64,000 nt of DNA from Elsinoe ampelina (Eukaryota). Positions 43,603 through 52,779 of this stretch are shown here, one piece after another. A program made the position numbers and the translations under genes. Numbering within the stretch: the first letter of the stretch is position 1; each line of letters starts with the position of its first letter. The notes beneath the pieces were generated by a model. That model had not been told where the DNA came from. It made no database searches and saw nothing but the letters and a program-made list of their open reading frames with translations. The stretch covers positions 221,437-285,436 of the forward strand of contig ML992514.1 of NCBI GenBank assembly GCA_010093995.1. Reading direction: 5' to 3'.

Positions 43603-45069
43603 TTATTTCTTGGACTGCGTGGTTGGCTGACCAAGTCTCGAGTAGAGCATGTACAGCGCCATTTGATTGCATTCCTGTGTGCCAGTGATGGTGACAAGAC
43701 GTTCGTTGCTGTTGTCTTGAGGTTCGTTGATCTTGATAACACTGCCGGAAAGCTGTCTGATCTCGTTGATCTTCGCTCCCTGCTTCCCGATAATGGCGCC
43801 GACCATGTCATTGGGAATGAAAATCTGCTGTGTCAGAGGCTGATTGGGCATACCACCACCTTGTTGAGGAGGAACAGCATGACCCATCTGCGGCTGAGCA
43901 TGACCAGCATATGGAGTCGGAGGTTGGCCAGCAGCGGCATACTGTTGACGTGGAGATCCGGCGCCAGCATAAGGCACGGGAGTCTGAGGATGAGCTGGTC
44001 CAGGTTGGCCGTTGTATTGTTGGCCCGCGTAACCCTGCTGGGGAGGTCCACGTTGGCCTTGTTGACGACAGTTGTAGTATTCTGGTTGACCCCATTGACC
44101 GCCGACCTGGTGTGGGACGTAAGGAACCACCTGCATGCCCCCAGGAACAGCGCCAGTAGGAGCACCGTGGCGAGTAGCGTATGCAGAAGCGCCGATGCCA
44201 TTAAAGCGTTCAGTGAGTTGTTCCTTGAGAGTGCTGCCGACATAAAAGGTCGCAATGTGAATGGCATCAGCAACACCAAGGACCACGAGTGAGCGCTCGG
44301 TCGAAAGAGGGAGGCACTGGTCAGATGCGTTGAGACGAGCCCCAGAGGCTTCTTGGATCTCACGAATGCGGACGCCACCCTTGCCGATGATAGATCCTAT
44401 CAAGATATGAGGGATAAGAAGGCGGAGAGGATATGTCTTGGACTCTGGAGTGCTTGGGGATTCCATGGGCTCATTGTTGAGTGTGCGGATGATTAGACCA
44501 AAGGCTTTGGCCACAGCGTCGACCAGGCCTGAGACGGTCAGGATGCGCTCGACGGCGCCCCTCGAATATTCGCTGACTGTGCACTTGGCACCGGACAGCT
44601 TCCTGATGAGAGAGACGTTTTCGCCGCCCTTGCCGATCACGGTAGCAGCTTCCGAGCTGGAGATGATGGAACGGAGGTGGAGCCACTGACTTTCGTCGGA
44701 ATGGTGATTGGTGGTGGACAACGCTGCGGCTTCAGCACCCGTCGCGGCAGTAGCTTGCGCCGGCTGTGTCTCAAGAACCTGTGCAGCAGTGGGCATGCCG
44801 GCAGGACCATCCACGGCTACGGGCTCTACCAAGGGAGCACTGTCTCCGTTTGTGACCTCCCCGGCATCCGGAACCACCTCATCGGCAGTAGTGGTATCGA
44901 CAGCTGCTGCATCCTCTACGGTTCCATCCTCTTCTGGCTGTGGCTCTGACACCTTGTCGAGGGCAGGACGCTTGGCGTCAGGCTGTTCGGTCGGACCGGC
45001 AGGTGATGAGGGATCTTCCAGCGGACGCTTCTGTGACTGGGCAGCGCCCTCTCTGGGCGAAGAAGACAT
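43603..45069 (-). CDS. rnc1: Triple-KH RNA-binding protein (Rnc1/Pbp2/hnRNP K-like); the last few codons may be spliced differently
   Basis: Three KH domains with VIGKGG, IIGKGG and IIGKQG loops; ends ERLVTITGTQECNQMALYMLYSRL. A possible terminal intron 43631-43589 would move the stop to 43551. Confidence 0.9.
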   Translation of the reverse strand: MSSSPREGAAQSQKRPLEDPSSPAGPTEQPDAKRPALDKVSEPQPEEDGTVEDAAAVDTTTADEVVPDAGEVTNGDSAPLVEPVAVDGPAGMPTAAQVLETQPAQATAATGAEAAALSTTNHHSDESQWLHLRSIISSSEAATVIGKGGENVSLIRKLSGAKCTVSEYSRGAVERILTVSGLVDAVAKAFGLIIRTLNNEPMESPSTPESKTYPLRLLIPHILIGSIIGKGGVRIREIQEASGARLNASDQCLPLSTERSLVVLGVADAIHIATFYVGSTLKEQLTERFNGIGASAYATRHGAPTGAVPGGMQVVPYVPHQVGGQWGQPEYYNCRQQGQRGPPQQGYAGQQYNGQPGPAHPQTPVPYAGAGSPRQQYAAAGQPPTPYAGHAQPQMGHAVPPQQGGGMPNQPLTQQIFIPNDMVGAIIGKQGAKINEIRQLSGSVIKINEPQDNSNERLVTITGTQECNQMALYMLYSRLGQPTTQSKK

Positions 45070-46387
45070 GTTGGGTATTGGTAAGGTTTGAACGACTCTG
45101 CACTGTGTGTACGAAGAAGAGATTGTGTGAATTATCTCGATTTATTTTCGACGTCTTATGTACACGACGGTGCTTCGGGTAGGGTGGTGGGAAGGGTATA
45201 TATTCGGATCGGAGGGGGTGAAGGAACGAGGTGAATGTGCTCGGGAAGGATGTCCAGCGAAGGATGGGTAGTGTGAAAGGAGGCCGGGTTGGTGTGAAGG
45301 GAGTAAGAAACAAGGCGCGGGTGGTATTCGAGAAAGGAGGGTCGTTATCGTTGCTGGTGAAGGGTAGGATGGAGGGAGATGAAGGTGTAGTTGGTTGTGC
45401 AGGTGTTGTGCAGTGAAGGTTGTAAGCTGCGAAAGCGCAAGGGCCAACAGAACAAACGACCGTCTCTTTCTTTTCCTGCTGTCAATACCTCTCTTGGGAG
45501 CGCGCTCAAAATTTGTCGCAAAGAATACGCGTTGGAGACGGTGACGATGTCTGAAACGACGTGACTGAGTGTGAGAAAAGACGTGGGGGACGATGAAGCG
45601 CAACGGTCGTCGAAGGAGAAGCCTGAACGAGGAAGTGTCAAAGTGGGAGAAGAGGAAGTGGGAACACCTGGTCTTGTGCGACACGGTGACTAAGCTGGTG
45701 ACGCTAGTCCGTTTGCGGCCAGGTTATAGACATGAGGTTGCTTGCGGTGAGCGTGGTCAGTCTCTCCGAATGTCCATGGATATAATACTTGGTGAGCTTG
45801 TAATCTTTCAGATCTCCTGATAGCCATTACCATCGATGGTATGGTACAACCGCCAGTACTTTTGATGCGGCCAGCAGGTAGAAGATGCTCTGTGGGCCGG
45901 CGTTTTGGCATGAGCTACATGACAGCATATATATCAATCCAATCAATGACATGCAGCAATGTGCTTTTTGGCATCATGAGTGTTCGTCTGCAGGCGTTGG
46001 ACAAACTATGCAAAACCTGTGACGATTCATGGCAGATCGTGTGATGCCCCCAGCCAGTCGTGAGTGCCTGCTTTTGCTCTCCCCAGGCTGAGAAAAATGT
46101 ACCTTATACGCGAGAAAATCCAAACAACGGCCTCTCTTCCTTCTTCCATCCCTTCCGCCCTCCGGACTCTGTCCATATTCTTCCCAGAGACTGCGTTGTC
46201 GTCAAGTCCATCGAGGTGGATTTAGCTATCACACCTCGTCCAAGCAGCCCAGCCTCACTGTTCGAAATCACTCGTGTCACAAGCCCTTCGCTGCCACAAC
46301 AGTCGCGTCATCCCAGGCTCCATTGCATACCGCCCCACCCCGATCATACATACACACATTTATTTGATCACCCAGAGCCTCACAAAC

Positions 46388-48623
46388 ATGGCTCATACTC
46401 AATTGGCCTGTCAGTACACGCCGTTTGCTTACCCTTCATCATGAACGATCCTAACTATGCCTAGACCGCACCTCCAAAGTTATTGGTATCCTTGATGCTA
46501 CTCCAGTATACGAGCCTCTGTCTGGATTCCAAAAGTACGTCACCCAGCTCCTCAGCATGTCAGCAATCTGATCCATTCTAGGCCTGAGGGCAACTTGCGT
46601 TGTGCCACTTATTCTCCCGACGGTCGCTTCTTTGCATGGGCTTCTCCAGAGCGGTAAGAATCGTGTCACCCACATCATGCCCCACTCATACTAAGTATTG
46701 TCCAGTGTCTTTGTTGTCGATGCCGCTAGTGGCGCCATCAGTACCACGCTCCCCACTGAGAACGTCTTCGAACTCTCCTTCTCACCACTTGGAACTTACA
46801 TCATCACCTGGCAACGGCCCAGTAAGGACGAAGAGGGGAATGCTGTAAAGAACTTGAAAGTGTGGAGGACACTCGATGACGGGGCCGGTGCGCAGGGCGA
46901 GAGGACACCAATTGGCCAATACGTTCAAAAGTCCCAGACTGGGTGGAACCTCCAGTACACCGCCGACGAGAAGCTCTGCGCTCGTTGCGTGACAAATGAG
47001 GTCCAATTTTACGAATCACACGATCTCGGTACAGTCTGGAAGAAGTTACGTCTGGAAAGTGTAGCCGATTTTGCCGTTTCCCCTGCCACCACCAACCTGT
47101 CAGTCGCTGCCTTCACTCCGGAGAAGAAGGGTCAACCAGCTTCCGTCAAGGTCTTCAAGGTCCCTCAATTCGATTCGCCTGTTTCGCAGAAGAGCTTCTT
47201 CAAGAGCGACAAGGTCCAGCTCAAGTGGAACCAGGAAGGAACCAGCGTCATCGCTCTTGCTCAGACTGATGTCGACAAGACCAACAAGAGTTATTATGGC
47301 GAGACCAACATGTACATTCTCAGTGCTAATGGAGGCTTCGAATCCAGGATCACCCTGGATAAGGAAGGTCCGATCCACGATGTGACCTGGTCCCCGAATT
47401 CCAAGGAGTTCGGTGTCGTCTACGGGTACATGCCAGCAAAGACGACTATCTTCAACGTACGGGCTGTAGCAACAAAGGATTTCCCGGCCGCTCCCCGCAA
47501 TACTATCAGCTTCTCGCCACACGGTCGCTTCGTTCTAATCGCCGGGTTCGGCAACCTTCAGGGCGACGTGGACATTTACGACCTTGACAAGAACTACAAC
47601 AAAGTCTGCACTCTGAAGGCCAGTAATGCCAGTGTTTGCGAGTGGAGTCCGGATGGAAAGCACATCCTATTCGCGACCACTAGCCCACGCCTTCGTGTCG
47701 ACAATGGCATCCGCATTTACCATGTCAGTGGCGCCATCATCTACAACGAGGACATGACTGAGCTCTACAACGTCTACTGGCGCCCACTTTCCGCGTCTCA
47801 GTATCCTCTCGGAGATCCCTTCAATCCTGCTCCAACACCTCATCCGTCTGCGGTCGCCTATCTCGGCACCGTCAAGACACCATCAAAGCCAGTCGGCGCT
47901 TACAGGCCACCAGGTGCTCGTGGCACCGTGACGCCTCTCGCTTTCAAGCGCGAGGACGAAGGTGGTGCAGCCTTCATCCGTGATGGTATCAGTAGCGGAG
48001 GTACTAGTACCGGTCTCAATGGCTTTGGTAAGCCTCGACGTCGGGAGGTTCCTGGTGCTGAATCTGCTGAGCCTCTCCCTCCAGGAGCTGCACCTGGCGG
48101 TGGTGTTAGTCTCACCGGAGCCGGTGATGACAATCTCAGCAAGGCAGCTCTCAAGAACAAGAAGAAGCGCGAGAACAAGAAGGCTAAAGATGCCGAAACA
48201 GCACACAATGGCAACGGCAATCTGACTGCACCGGGAACCAACGGACATGCGACACCTTCCCGGAGCCCTGACCGCCGCGAGCGTCCAAGGAGCAGGTCCA
48301 AGACTGGTCAAGACCCACGCCCTCAGTCTAGGAGACGCGAGGGCAGCAAGGCTCGTGGTCCCCCCCGATCTGCTGCTAATGGTACCACTGTCCAGACCAA
48401 TAATGTTCCTGCTGCCGCGCCTGCTCCCGATCTTACCGTCACTAGTCCTGGCGGTGGCTCTGCCTACGAGAAGAAGGTCCGTGCACTACACAAGAAGCTC
48501 AGGGCCATTGAGGATCTCAAGATGCGTCAGGCCGGCGGTGAAAAGCTCGAAGCAACCCAGGTCCAGAAGATTGCCACCGAAGAGTCCGTCAGGAAAGAGC
48601 TCACTGGCTTGAACGTGGACTAG
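46388..48623 (+). CDS. EIF2A: Eukaryotic translation initiation factor 2A
   Basis: Three short 5' introns give MAHTQLAYRTSKVIG...PEGNLRCATYSPDGRFFAWA. Motifs DKTNKSYYGET, GPIHDVTWSPNS, AGFGNLQG, ATTSPRLRVDNG and AYRPPGARG; C-terminal KKLRAIEDLK. Confidence 0.95.
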
Positions 48624-49289
48624 CATTGCCCTCGCGGCCGAGACCTTGGGTCGAGTGACACTACCAAGCGAGACTACCTGGGTATCAGGGCGAAGATCTT
48701 CAAGGCGACACAGCAATACCATGGGTTGGCTGCATCTGGCAACGAGTGGGACAAGCCAATCGAGTTCAGTATTCCAGTCGCAAGTCCTAGCACGGATTTC
48801 GACCATCAGGTGGAGAGACTTCGCTACCTTGTCGATCACACCGACTTCGATCCTGATCTTCCTGTTGAGGAACGGCAACCTCTTGGCAAACGTCCCGACT
48901 CTGTCGTTGGTGGCCATACTATCGAAGAGCAATACGACTATGTTCCTCGTCTAGCGATGGACTACAACGCCATTCCGTGGCAGGCTATCATCGTCGCAGA
49001 GCGATTTCATGGCCGAGATGAGCGGCGTTATTTCACTAGATCACAAAGGAAACAGCTCAACAAGGAGAAAGAGGTTGTCAAATCACCATGCATGTGCTTG
49101 GGGTGGGTATTGGATCCGACAGAGAGGATCAACACCTGGCTGTGGGAAGTCCATGAGGGGTACTGGATGGGCCCTCTGACTTCAGGTGCCGATCTTAAGA
49201 GGTCATCGCGCCATGCTGTGGCGAATCGGCCGAATCGTGAACGGGCGAGGAAGCGATACGCGCGCGCAGGCATGAAATGTCCTGTCTAG
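48624..49289 (+). other. Stop-free frame continuing in frame after the eIF2A TAG (221 codons): readthrough extension or separate orphan ORF
   Basis: No stop from 48624 to the TAG ending at 49289, in the same frame as eIF2A. The first in-frame ATG is at 48957. Confidence 0.5.
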
Positions 49290-50278
49290 TGGCACTGAGA
49301 CGACTACGTAGAAATATCAAAATGACAACGCTCGTGACTCTCACTTCCTCCTGCTATGTTCCCGTGTTTGTCTCTGGCGCTTTCGATCGCGTTGCTGTCC
49401 CTGTCGAGTCAGCAGTGTGTGTGTGGACTGTCTTCTGTTCAGCGGCCATTTCCTATAACGACGCTCAGATAGCCGCCTTTTGGAGACGGTGTGGGCACTT
49501 GCTATCCAGTATTCCTGGCGATATTTGGTGGTTTCTAGTATCCCCTGTTCTTTTCCGTTCTATACACGCCGGTATTCCATCTGTCTATCGCATCCCGTCG
49601 GCGACTTGGCGCCGTCAAAGACCCCATCCCGGGGGCAGCGTTCGCCACTCCGTCGGGAGAGCGGGGTGTCTGCTGTGGTTGCTGCACGCCACTGATTGTG
49701 ATGAATCTGACTTCTTTGTGTCGCTATGTGTGGGTAGAATATACTGTGTGGTTTTTGGGTCGTTTTGATGGATACTGGTGGAGCTGTACCCAGATTACCG
49801 TTCGGGTGGTTTTTGTTGGTGGAGATGGTATGAGTCCGTTTGCGAAATCGGGTTGACTTCGTGAGGTAAGCTCATTTCCACACGGAATTGACACGGACGC
49901 CGATGAACGCTCGGAGAAGGATATGAGCGGCTAGGGGAGGCTAGATAGAGTACAGTCTGGCACTGTGACATCGCGCAGAGGTCGTTGGTGGTGGTCTGGC
50001 AGCGGTGCAAGACGGTGGATGGGTCTTGGCATTGACTCGGAAACCAGGGGCGAGGGCGCCGATGATAATACAAGGCGAAGACACGTGAGGATGAGAGTGA
50101 AAGGGACGGAGATGACAAAAGGATATCAAGATGCCGATTCACGAGTCAAATGTGTCTATACATGCTATACACGCGCGAGCAATGTTGCCGTCCAACCCAT
50201 CGCTGCCATGCACCATATATGCTCGCCTCCCATGGGAAAAGAGGCCGTGATCACGAGCCGGACGCCCCTCCCACCTCT

Positions 50279-52779
50279 CTAGCCCAGACCACCCCTACCG
50301 CTCTTCACCCTCGCCTCCACGGGCAGCAACATCCCCTCCCCACCCTTCCCAAGCGCCATACCCTTCTCCCAGCCCATCTTCTCCATCAACTTCCGCCCAA
50401 AGTTACTCTCCGCAATCTCCGGCGCCGTAGCACCCACGACTTCACCATGTCGATACCCAACAGCCGCAGAGTCGAATCCGCCTCCTCTACCCGCGCGCTT
50501 TGGTCCCTGCCCCTTCCCTCTTGGACCCTTACCTGCTCCATTGAGGAAGCCCCGTTGCGAGATACGCTCCACACGATCCCACTTTCGCTGGTCAAACTCG
50601 CCTGTCCGAGCGCGCTTTGAGAAGACAGTGAAGCGATTCTTGCCGCTCCCCCTCGAAGTACTGGTCAGGTCAAAGACGTGGGCGATCTCATGGAGGAGTT
50701 TGCGTTCCTTCTTCTCCATGGGCGGCATGGCTTTTTGCTGCATGTCGTCGTCGTCGAGGAAGTCCTCGATCTCGCGGCGGAGCTGCGCGAGGGAAAGACC
50801 GTCGGCGAACTTGATCTGGATGTCGGGACGGAACTTGTTGGCTCTGCCGCGGCCGAGGAGGCCTTCGGCGCGGAGCTCTTCTCGCTCGACTTTCTTTGCA
50901 GCTTTCTTGGCGCGGTCGTTGGCCCAGGAGGTTTGGAGGTCGGAGATGAGGTCCTCGTCGGAGAGGGCTGCGAGTTCTTCAGGTAGACCGCCGGCGGACT
51001 TGCGTCCCTTCTTGCCGGCAGGACGAAGCGAGGGTCGTTCGAAGTCCATGACGTCGAAGCCGCCGTAGGGATCCTGATCAAGGACGTCGGCCATGAGTGA
51101 GGCAGAAGGGAACGTGTCGCGTTGCTTCTTCTTCCCACCACGCTTCGGTCTCTTGTTGGCGGACCGCGCAAGGAGCGACTCGAGACCAGCCTCCGCTTCT
51201 GCAAGCTCGTGGTTGGTAGGGATTTCTGAGTCATCTAGAAGTAGAAGCTCATCAGACCCGAGACCAAGTTCTTCTTGTTTGGCAAGCATGCGGGCAATCT
51301 CTTCATCGGTCATCGCGTCCATTTGCCGTTGGCGCAGGTCTGTCTCGTCCTCCCATCGCTCCTGTTCGGTGTAGTCAAGGTCAGAGTCGAGCTCAGAATC
51401 ATCGCCAGGATCCGAGGTGCCATCCTCGTCATCCTCTCCATCGTTCTCGTCATCGTCATCCTCCAAGTTCGACAGTAATGCACTAACATCGGTCATATCC
51501 ACATCCGTCGTGGGTACGGAGCTCAACTCCTGCCTTCGATTCTTGCGTCGAGATTTGTTCTTGACGGGTGCAGATGCGGATGTCGGCTCCACTTCATCAT
51601 CGATCTCCTCCTCGTCACCCATGACGCTCGACACCCAGTCGCTCTCGCTGTGCTGGAGCGCGGAAACAGCGGCAATGAGGTCATCGCCCCCGCTCATGTT
51701 TGCGATATAGTCCTGCAACATTGCTTCCTCATCTTCATCCTCCTCCATGTCTGGATCATCCATGATTCTGCCGAATGATTCTCTTGCGAGTGACTGACTG
51801 CCACGAGTGACCTTCTGTTTCTTGTTCTTCCTACCCTTGCTCTTCTTAGTTTGAAGCGGTCTATCCTTCTTCCAACCCCCGACGGCGATCTTCGAGGCTG
51901 CCGGTGCCGATTGAGCATTCAGACTGGGCGTGTGCAGGTCTGTCACGTTTGGCGCGGGTACAGCTGGCAGTGGAGGTTTCGAGCCGGGCACCTGGGATAC
52001 CGAGGTAGTCTTGGCTGTTACTTCTGTTACTTGAGCCGGGCCGGACGGCGGTGCTCGAGTCGCGGGTGCCGGAGCAGGTGCAGACTGCTGCGCTGGGGGA
52101 TCGTCTCTAATGGTGACTTTATTTGACCTTCCTCTGAACACCACCACCTCGTCCTCACTGCCATCGTCCTCCAAAGGCGAGACGTCGCAAACAACTGGGA
52201 CTGAGCCGGTGGGGGCCAGAGTCTTGTCGCCGATCGGATCGACCACGAACAGGTCTTGTGGCGGATCTTGCAACGAAACATCCGAGGCGTCTCCACTGGG
52301 AGTATCCTGACCAGAAGTCTGAAAAGCCGACAGCTCCGTGGTTTCCGCTTCCATCTCGAGGCTAAGCCCCTGCTGCGGTGGCGAAGTCCTGTCTGGACTT
52401 TTGATGTGCATCTGCGCCATTGCTCCATCGCTGTCGTCCAGCTCGCTATCAAGCTCCTGTCTGCTCTTATCCTTCTCGTGTTCATCTGGAATCTTCGACT
52501 CGTCCGACGGATTCATGTTTCCGGCACTAACGAAGCGCATGCTCTGGTGTCGAAGCTTTACCGAAGGTGACCATTCCGAGTGATGCCGTTCTGTGCGAAG
52601 TGCTTCATCCCTCATAGAGAAGAATGGAGAGGAGTTACCGCCTTGGACGAGGTTAGCGGATTCAGCGAAGGAGGTTGCAGTCAAGACGCACTGCTCTCTC
52701 TCGAGAACTTGTCATTGAAGCTCTTCCGCTTGGGCGTCTTCTGCTGGTTGCCACCTTTGGCTTTGTGTCTCTTCGGCAT
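50279..52779 (-). CDS. SQS1: Sqs1-like R3H and G-patch domain protein
   Basis: ATG 52779 (MPKRHKAK); an intron GTGCGT...GCTAAC...AAG joins it to FSMRDEA...KLRHQSMRFVSAG. R3H-like PPMEKKERKLLHEIAHVFDLTSTSRGSGKNRF; G-patch SNFGRKLMEKMGWEKGMALG...GRGGLG. Confidence 0.88.

Follow-up and report, generated by a model that had tools for sequence, protein, structure and literature searches.

When a long open frame follows a stop codon in the same phase, does it add a second product to the gene or only length to the transcript? The question is raised by the eIF2A gene of Elsinoe ampelina, which lies in a 64,000-nucleotide (nt) stretch of contig ML992514.1 (assembly GCA_010093995.1, positions 221,437 to 285,436 of the forward strand; this whole stretch is the window, and all coordinates refer to it). 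The eIF2A reading frame runs on for 221 codons past its TAG, and the initial annotation, made from the letters alone, proposed a regulated long eIF2A isoform produced by readthrough, RNA editing or a weak intron that removes the stop. The frame is open over its full length, the stop stands at a conserved position, continuous messenger RNA (mRNA) spans both, and the extension has no homologue in the collections searched. The explanation favored here, at a probability of about 40%, treats the open frame as an orphan within a long 3′ untranslated region (UTR), subject at most to background leakage at the UAG-C stop.

Under this explanation, eIF2A would be made as a protein of 693 amino acids that terminates at a conserved UAG (48621-48623), and its mRNA would run a further ~720 nt before polyadenylation near 49343. 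As a lineage-restricted orphan, the 221-codon frame would fill an unusually long 3′ UTR; splicing does not join it to eIF2A, and the available RNA gives no sign of editing. Any extended protein would come from a UAG-C stop leaking at background level only and would not be an established, programmed isoform, and the extension would have no function. The features at issue are these:

46160..49343, + strand: eIF2A transcript from RNA contigs; 5′ end at about 46160, main 3′ end probably at about 49343
46388..48623, + strand: eIF2A coding sequence, 693 amino acids; exons 46388-46409, 46465-46534, 46582-46652 and 46705-48623
48621..48623, + strand: eIF2A stop TAG, followed by C; context GAC-TAG-CAT-TGC
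48624..49289, + strand: in-frame open frame of 221 codons plus TAG at 49287-49289 (protein P0001)
48957..48959, + strand: first in-frame ATG, at the head of a possible downstream open reading frame (ORF) of 110 amino acids

The eIF2A gene and its terminator

The short product is defined by several lines of evidence. The reading frame of the last exon (46695..48623, + strand) ends ...KELTGLNVD-TAG, and the gene end first described at 48621-48623 agrees with both the sequence and the list of open frames. Exons joined as in the RNA encode 693 amino acids with one stop, which is terminal. Exon 4 contains the Pfam eIF2A domain PF08662 (E 8.3e-81) and is 100% identical to a 693-amino acid eIF2A-domain protein of Elsinoe ampelina (named as in its source). 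This identity, together with the matching length, indicates that the annotated, canonical product ends at TAG 48621-48623. Both the PF08662 domain and a length like that of the orthologues place the protein in the eIF2A family. Annotated eIF2A proteins of Elsinoe fawcettii, E. australis, Sphaceloma murrayae and Myriangium duriaei have 695-699 amino acids and are 91, 84, 83 and 80% identical, respectively; with E. ampelina included, annotated orthologues of the same order range from 693 to 699 amino acids and none is extended.

A wider comparison drew on 80 fungal eIF2A loci from metagenomes, which are 49-77% identical over the best segment. A C-terminal match was obtained in 63 of the 80 loci and a readable stop in 62. 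The eIF2A C terminus falls at one alignment position (...KEL.ALG..E-stop) in all 62 relatives with a readable stop, and this shared position marks TAG 48621-48623 as the ancestral terminator. A recent nonsense mutation as the origin of the TAG is ruled out, since the C terminus aligns with those of all readable relatives. The yeast BSC ("bypass of stop codon") genes consist of adjacent in-frame ORFs with one stop between them, and several represent strain-specific nonsense mutations that interrupt longer genes. The E. ampelina locus resembles these genes in having two in-frame frames with a single stop and in having been found by genome scanning, but differs from them in that the eIF2A stop is ancestral and its position conserved.

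The relatives vary in which stop codon they use at this position: 51 distinct eIF2A stop contexts (L001-L080) comprise 23 TAG, 20 TGA and 8 TAA codons. Upstream of the terminator, a 200-codon open frame runs antisense (47883-48485, - strand) over the low-complexity C-terminal tail of eIF2A and is probably a by-product of codon composition.

An open frame on the eIF2A transcript

The open frame was described correctly at the outset. The eIF2A frame stays open for 221 codons past the UAG, up to 49289, the quoted residues are present in its translation, and the first in-frame ATG stands at 48957 (extension residue 112). Stop trinucleotides make up 3.5% of the gene-free DNA in the window, a frequency at which 221 codons would remain open with a probability of about 4e-4 per gene. 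At this probability, length alone gives a few such frames per fungal genome, and the present case was selected from a genome-wide screen in which many genes were looked at, with the multiple testing that this entails.

Relatives provide a second measure of chance. Among the complete post-stop frames of 48 distinct relative contexts, the median is 8.5 codons and the mean 16; two frames reach 50 codons, the longest has 157, and none has 221. This median is shorter than the roughly 17 codons expected at a stop frequency of 4%. The 157-codon frame follows a TAA-G stop in frame with eIF2A on an unrelated fungal metagenome contig (L037:1510-1980; L038 has the same sequence). Its translation is junk-like and the locus is rich in long ORFs in all frames, an indication that long chance frames do arise behind eIF2A.

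An overlapping gene on the other strand does not account for the open frame, as had been recognized initially. The antisense intervals 48486-48950 and 49028-49285 have no Pfam match and low coding scores. An antisense source was rejected: in addition to the lack of Pfam matches, frames on the minus strand have scores from -0.40 to +0.01 and contain 5-14 stops.

The frame is carried on the eIF2A transcript. Contigs of runs X1, X2 and X7 were aligned to 46000-50400. Such contigs lose rare variants, so that minor isoforms or low-level editing could be missed, and they cannot separate overlapping transcripts of the same strand, so that a second start inside the region would stay hidden. X1 and X2 can be recognized as RNA from the three GT..AG introns that are spliced out of their contigs (46409/46465, 46534/46582 and 46652/46705). 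The X1 contig spans 46160-50090 at a depth of 376, with an adapter abutting 46160, and the X2 contig spans 46162-49343. The X7 contig covers 47838-49343 at a depth of 41.9, with a depth of 0-2.3 over the 5′ part of eIF2A, a pattern unlike that of DNA. Each of the three contigs reads without a break through the stop and on over the full open frame. Continuity over 48621-49343 places the in-frame open frame on the same mRNA as eIF2A, a feature of the readthrough class. Polyadenylation before about 48750, which would have spoken against a long isoform, is not seen in these contigs; they run on to 49343. At the other end of the transcript, the adapter in X1 that abuts the contig start suggests transcription initiation near 46160, with a 5′ UTR of about 228 nt.

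Two features describe the region downstream of the frame:

49294..49343, + strand: putative 3′-end processing region with TACGTA at 49305, an A-rich stretch and the shared contig end
49344..50090, no strand assigned: weakly transcribed T-rich spacer between convergent genes, AT skew about -0.4

The X2 and X7 contigs come from different studies, and both end exactly at 49343. Past this position, X2 drops in depth from 13.4 to 2.9 and X7 from 41.9 to 2.95. The TACGTA at 49305 is the only match to TAYRTA within 48624-50279. Of the eight 30-nt windows with the highest AT content in this interval, four lie in 49294-49339, the maximum of 0.67 among them. Within 48624-49293 there is a single such AT-rich window (49029) and no TAYRTA element. 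These signals point to a main poly(A) site near 49343, which would give a 3′ UTR of about 720 nt. Beyond it, the spacer 49344-50090 yields low-depth pieces in X2 (49550-49813) and X7 (49365-49711) and is joined to the eIF2A contig in X1. A 175-codon open frame at 49241-49768, with an ATG at 49322, overlaps this spacer; it has a hydrophobic translation and negative coding scores and looks non-coding.

Coding signature and conservation of the extension

The extension divides into two parts that differ in composition:

48624..48998, + strand: coding-like part of about 125 codons, all but the last 14 upstream of the first ATG, sliding-window score 0.14-0.21 bits per codon
48999..49286, + strand: tail without coding signature, Arg-rich near its end, score -0.05 to -0.015

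Scores were obtained with a 3-periodic Markov model of orders K=1, 2 and 3, which was trained on 15 other long ORFs and is blind to stops; the null sets are small and drawn from the single 64-kb window. The statement in the initial annotation that the codons look gene-like holds for 48624 to about 49000 and fails for the last ~95 codons. Within the coding-like part, the 111 codons that precede the ATG (48624-48956) score 0.10, 0.15 and 0.08 bits per codon at orders 1, 2 and 3. The sliding-window score is about zero from roughly 49000 and negative from 49149. This profile indicates that the coding-like unit extends from 48624 to about 49000, adjoins the stop and for the most part precedes ATG 48957. 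By comparison, the whole ORF from this ATG ranks in the 15th percentile among coding windows, and its score is matched or exceeded in 3-17% of null windows. Codon-position composition is flat over the 660 nt following the extension, and the codon-usage log-likelihood of the extension exceeds that of 3000 of 3000 stop-free Markov simulations.

Much of this signature weighs against a chance frame in a 3′ UTR. Of 180 gene-free windows, 1.1% (K=1), 0% (K=2) and 0.6% (K=3) score as high as 48624-48956. The same segment outranks every one of the 14 in-frame flanks taken 3′ of other genes, and 41 of the 42 flank frames; against cross-validated windows of real coding sequence it ranks in the 53rd percentile. 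From the eIF2A coding sequence over the stop, the sliding-window score remains at 0.12-0.21 bits per codon, with no dip. The signal is specific to one frame, as the other five score +0.01 to -0.40, and base frequencies at codon position 1 are A.24, C.27, G.33 and T.16 in the extension against.25,.25,.33 and.16 in the genes of the window. Furthermore, of the ~240 codons that separate the stop from the inferred poly(A) site, 221 belong to the open frame, and a 3′ UTR of 720 nt is long for a filamentous fungus. The ~125 coding-like codons are poorly explained by an orphan frame and need either chance (about 1 in 100) or a young or decaying coding sequence. Pure chance has to cover a frame of probability 4e-4 together with a composition of about 1 in 100, and only the large number of genes screened makes this tolerable.

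Homology searches give the extension no relatives. It has no Pfam family at E up to 1 and no match in the PDB. A word-indexed protein search scored 0 of 133 candidates of near lengths and 0 of 939 of longer lengths. Three matches were returned from 1.84 billion representatives, all of them repetitive proteins matched over 6-12 short stretches each, and these are regarded as spurious. The ESM Atlas returned no usable match for the whole extension or for residues 1-130, with a low recognition score (1592), and neither the 221-amino acid nor the 110-amino acid form has an exact match in a collection of 15 billion proteins. A metagenome scan with the extension confirmed 0 of 72 pattern matches. 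Structure prediction by AlphaFold2 on the single sequence gave a mean predicted local distance difference test (pLDDT) score of 37.5, which is uninformative. Tandem repeats, Rfam families and dispersed repeats are absent from the region. A check of literature titles on eIF2A with readthrough or an extended isoform, a weak check in that it covered titles only, found no eIF2A readthrough isoform among the titles listed.

Comparison with relatives had been suggested as a way to see whether the extension stays in frame behind eIF2A. By tblastn and blastn, the segment is absent from all 80 related loci, in which eIF2A itself is 49-77% identical (best tblastn E 0.54, best blastn E 0.31). Gene order was compared at the 37 loci that have more than 1200 nt downstream of the eIF2A stop. 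The order of a KH-like gene (- strand), eIF2A (+ strand) and a G-patch-like gene (- strand), which occupies 43603-52711 of the window, is kept in one of them only, L053. The convergent neighbor is the following:

50279..52711, - strand: ORF of a putative G-patch protein, by our own reading of the sequence

The convergent spacer from the eIF2A stop to this G-patch-like neighbor measures 816 nt in L053 versus 1656 nt here, which indicates about 840 nt of extra sequence in the E. ampelina lineage.

Recoding, separate translation and decay as rival explanations

Recoding would require the stop to be leaky or editable. Leaky motif types include UGA-CUAG and UAG-CAR-YYA. The base after the UAG is C, as originally stated, and in the context GAC-UAG-CAU-UGC only this +4 C and the +5 A fit a UAG-CAR-type motif; the -1 base is C, not A. 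The stop thus does not stand in a known leaky context. In the accessible part of PMC12233894, a +4 C is described as promoting readthrough, and A at -1 and -2 is reported to enhance UAG readthrough in yeast. The small GC-rich stems noted around the stop are present as sequence, and folds there are no more stable than those of shuffled controls. For segments of 41-103 nt compared with dinucleotide shuffles, z is +0.99 (103 nt), +0.33, +0.87 and +1.88, and 116-193 of 200 shuffles fold at least as well as the native region. The idea of a 3′ structure favoring readthrough is not borne out by these values (z +0.33 to +1.88), and a stimulatory structure 3′ of the stop, a trait of some readthrough genes, was not found. 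In the 61-nt fold, the UAG lies in a hairpin loop (ensemble frequency 0.28); this fold is also no better than those of shuffles. Since both the context and the structure traits fail, the locus is not filed as an established member of the programmed-readthrough class. No transfer RNA (tRNA) gene occurs in the 64-kb window, and hence no suppressor tRNA was seen there.

Editing has a different set of precedents. Elsinoe is here taken to be a Dothideomycete. The A>G reads predicted at 48622 are not seen in the X1, X2 and X7 contigs, from which rare variants are lost and for which the stage sampled is unspecified. Of the traits of edited sites, a U before the A is supplied by the UAG itself. The available text of PMC11156358 describes adenosine-to-inosine (A-to-I) mRNA editing as documented only in Sordariomycetes and one Pezizomycete, Pyronema, and as not found in Aspergillus nidulans (Eurotiomycete) or Botrytis cinerea (Leotiomycete). 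Passages of PMC13123824 identify UAG as the triplet most often edited in fungi, with stop-loss sites in 403 Fusarium graminearum genes. One of these passages concerns DBF2, in which sexual-stage A-to-I stop-loss editing adds a 24-amino acid disordered degron and the UAG lies in a conserved hairpin (PMC13123824). With F. graminearum stop-loss editing as described there, the E. ampelina locus shares a UAG stop, an A after U, an extension into the 3′ UTR and low conservation beyond close relatives. It differs from DBF2 in having no stable hairpin predicted, no A>G in the contigs, a long extension and a coding-like first half.

Splicing could also remove the stop, and one intron had been proposed:

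48615..48713, + strand: candidate stop-removing intron, rejected as a major isoform

The donor GTGGAC at 48615 and the ACAG ending at 48713 exist as described, and removal of the 99 nt would keep the frame; the corresponding junction is not found in X1, X2 or X7. The candidate was rejected for its non-consensus donor, its lack of a CTRAY branch site, its length and the missing RNA joint. The verified eIF2A introns have 47-55 nt and donors GTCAGT, GTACGT and GTAAGA, so that neither consensus splice signals nor a junction supports a stop-removing intron. A shorter intron was also considered, with its donor GTCAGG at 48588 and its acceptor in the AG of the TAG; it is in phase but only 36 nt long, and it has no RNA joint. 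A minor splice isoform of either kind is very improbable: GT and AG are present and contigs lose rare variants, but no joint appears even at the depth of 376 in X1, and real introns are seen in X1 and X2.

The leading rival is a recoded long eIF2A, in which a near-cognate tRNA would read the UAG-C at 48621, or A-to-I editing would alter it in an unsampled stage. Up to 221 residues (~25 kDa, calculated) would be added, the first ~125 under selection and the rest a tolerated tail, and the extension would have arisen recently and be confined to Elsinoe. The frame keeps the eIF2A phase and is open straight from the stop, the mRNA covers it, and the 3′-end signals lie 5-54 nt past its own stop. Entry from eIF2A would simply explain a coding signature that starts at the stop and lies mostly before the first ATG. 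The +4 C (PMC12233894, in the part available), the prevalence of UAG among edited fungal triplets (PMC13123824, likewise) and the placement of the UAG in a hairpin loop of the 61-nt fold are also consistent with recoding. Against these stand the absence of the segment at 80 loci that retain eIF2A, the lack of an extended annotated orthologue, the only partly leaky context without stimulatory structure, and a tail that is not coding-like. The contigs have A at 48622, although rare variants get lost; editing was not found in the Eurotiomycete and the Leotiomycete covered in the available text of PMC11156358, and the fungal extension described in the consulted part of PMC13123824 is short, at 24 amino acids for DBF2. 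Recoding is therefore held to be possible but, on this balance, doubtful.

A separate small protein, translated from ATG 48957 (110 amino acids) or from an upstream near-cognate codon, would need either a transcript starting within the 3′ region of eIF2A or use of the eIF2A mRNA with a downstream ORF. The ATG has a purine at -3 and G at +4, the poly(A) region lies just past the stop of the frame, orphan genes are common in fungi, and the contigs cannot resolve overlapping same-strand transcripts. An independent gene from this ATG is nevertheless a poor fit, since most of the signal precedes it and the score is about zero from ~49000; the modest percentile of the ATG-48957 ORF, with 3-17% of null windows as high, agrees. 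Within 48624-48956 there is no in-frame ATG, the contigs show no splice signal that would supply an upstream start, the 110-amino acid form is absent from the 15-billion-protein collection, and the searches found no homologue of any length. This explanation is distinctly unlikely. A relic of once-coding DNA, young enough to be still free of stops and in frame by chance, whether gene remnant or inserted fragment, would account for a coding signature without a start codon and for the ~840 nt of extra spacer relative to L053, the only syntenic locus. No parent or paralogue was found, although the searched collection includes the eIF2A of this species, and there is no repeat or transposon signal; such a relic would also need a boundary only a few codons from the eIF2A stop, and the phase of eIF2A. 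A relic is given only a slim chance. The orphan open frame in the 3′ UTR remains the favored explanation, in that the non-coding-like last ~95 codons, the lack of structure, the partial context and the lack of homologues all count for it. Of the tests named in the initial annotation that could have overturned its regulated long isoform, two were approached, and neither did so.

Extensions made by peroxisomal readthrough are short, at about 10-20 residues, with a peroxisomal targeting signal at their end, unlike the frame here, which has 221 codons and ends in ...MKCPV without a targeting signal. Fungal ribosomal readthrough yields peroxisomal isoforms of metabolic enzymes (PMC4207609, in the part available). 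The E. ampelina gene resembles the cases described in that source as a housekeeping gene with an in-frame extension, in which one mRNA would give a short and, if read, a long protein. The stops described in the same portion of PMC4207609 have a short UGA context, whereas the context here is UAG-CAU. Long extensions are known from Drosophila, where they were predicted phylogenetically and seen by ribosome profiling, as far as the consulted part of PMC3840789 describes. The likeness to these cases is a protein-coding signature past an annotated stop; those in the available text of PMC3840789 have multi-species conservation and footprints, whereas the signature here is one of composition in a single genome.

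Readthrough and stop-loss are thus a known class, and the E. ampelina extension, if real, would be unusual for fungi in its length, its UAG-CAU context and its translation-factor host. To our knowledge, it would exceed in length all cellular readthrough extensions proposed for fungi. If the extension is translated, the isoform level of a core translation factor would depend on termination efficiency, fungal annotation would be hiding long recoded forms, and the locus would offer a rare view of a 3′ UTR on its way to becoming coding sequence. Without translation, the locus is a caution that long in-frame post-stop frames, even those of moderately coding-like composition, are to be expected a few times per genome, and that comparative or translational evidence is needed before such frames are believed.

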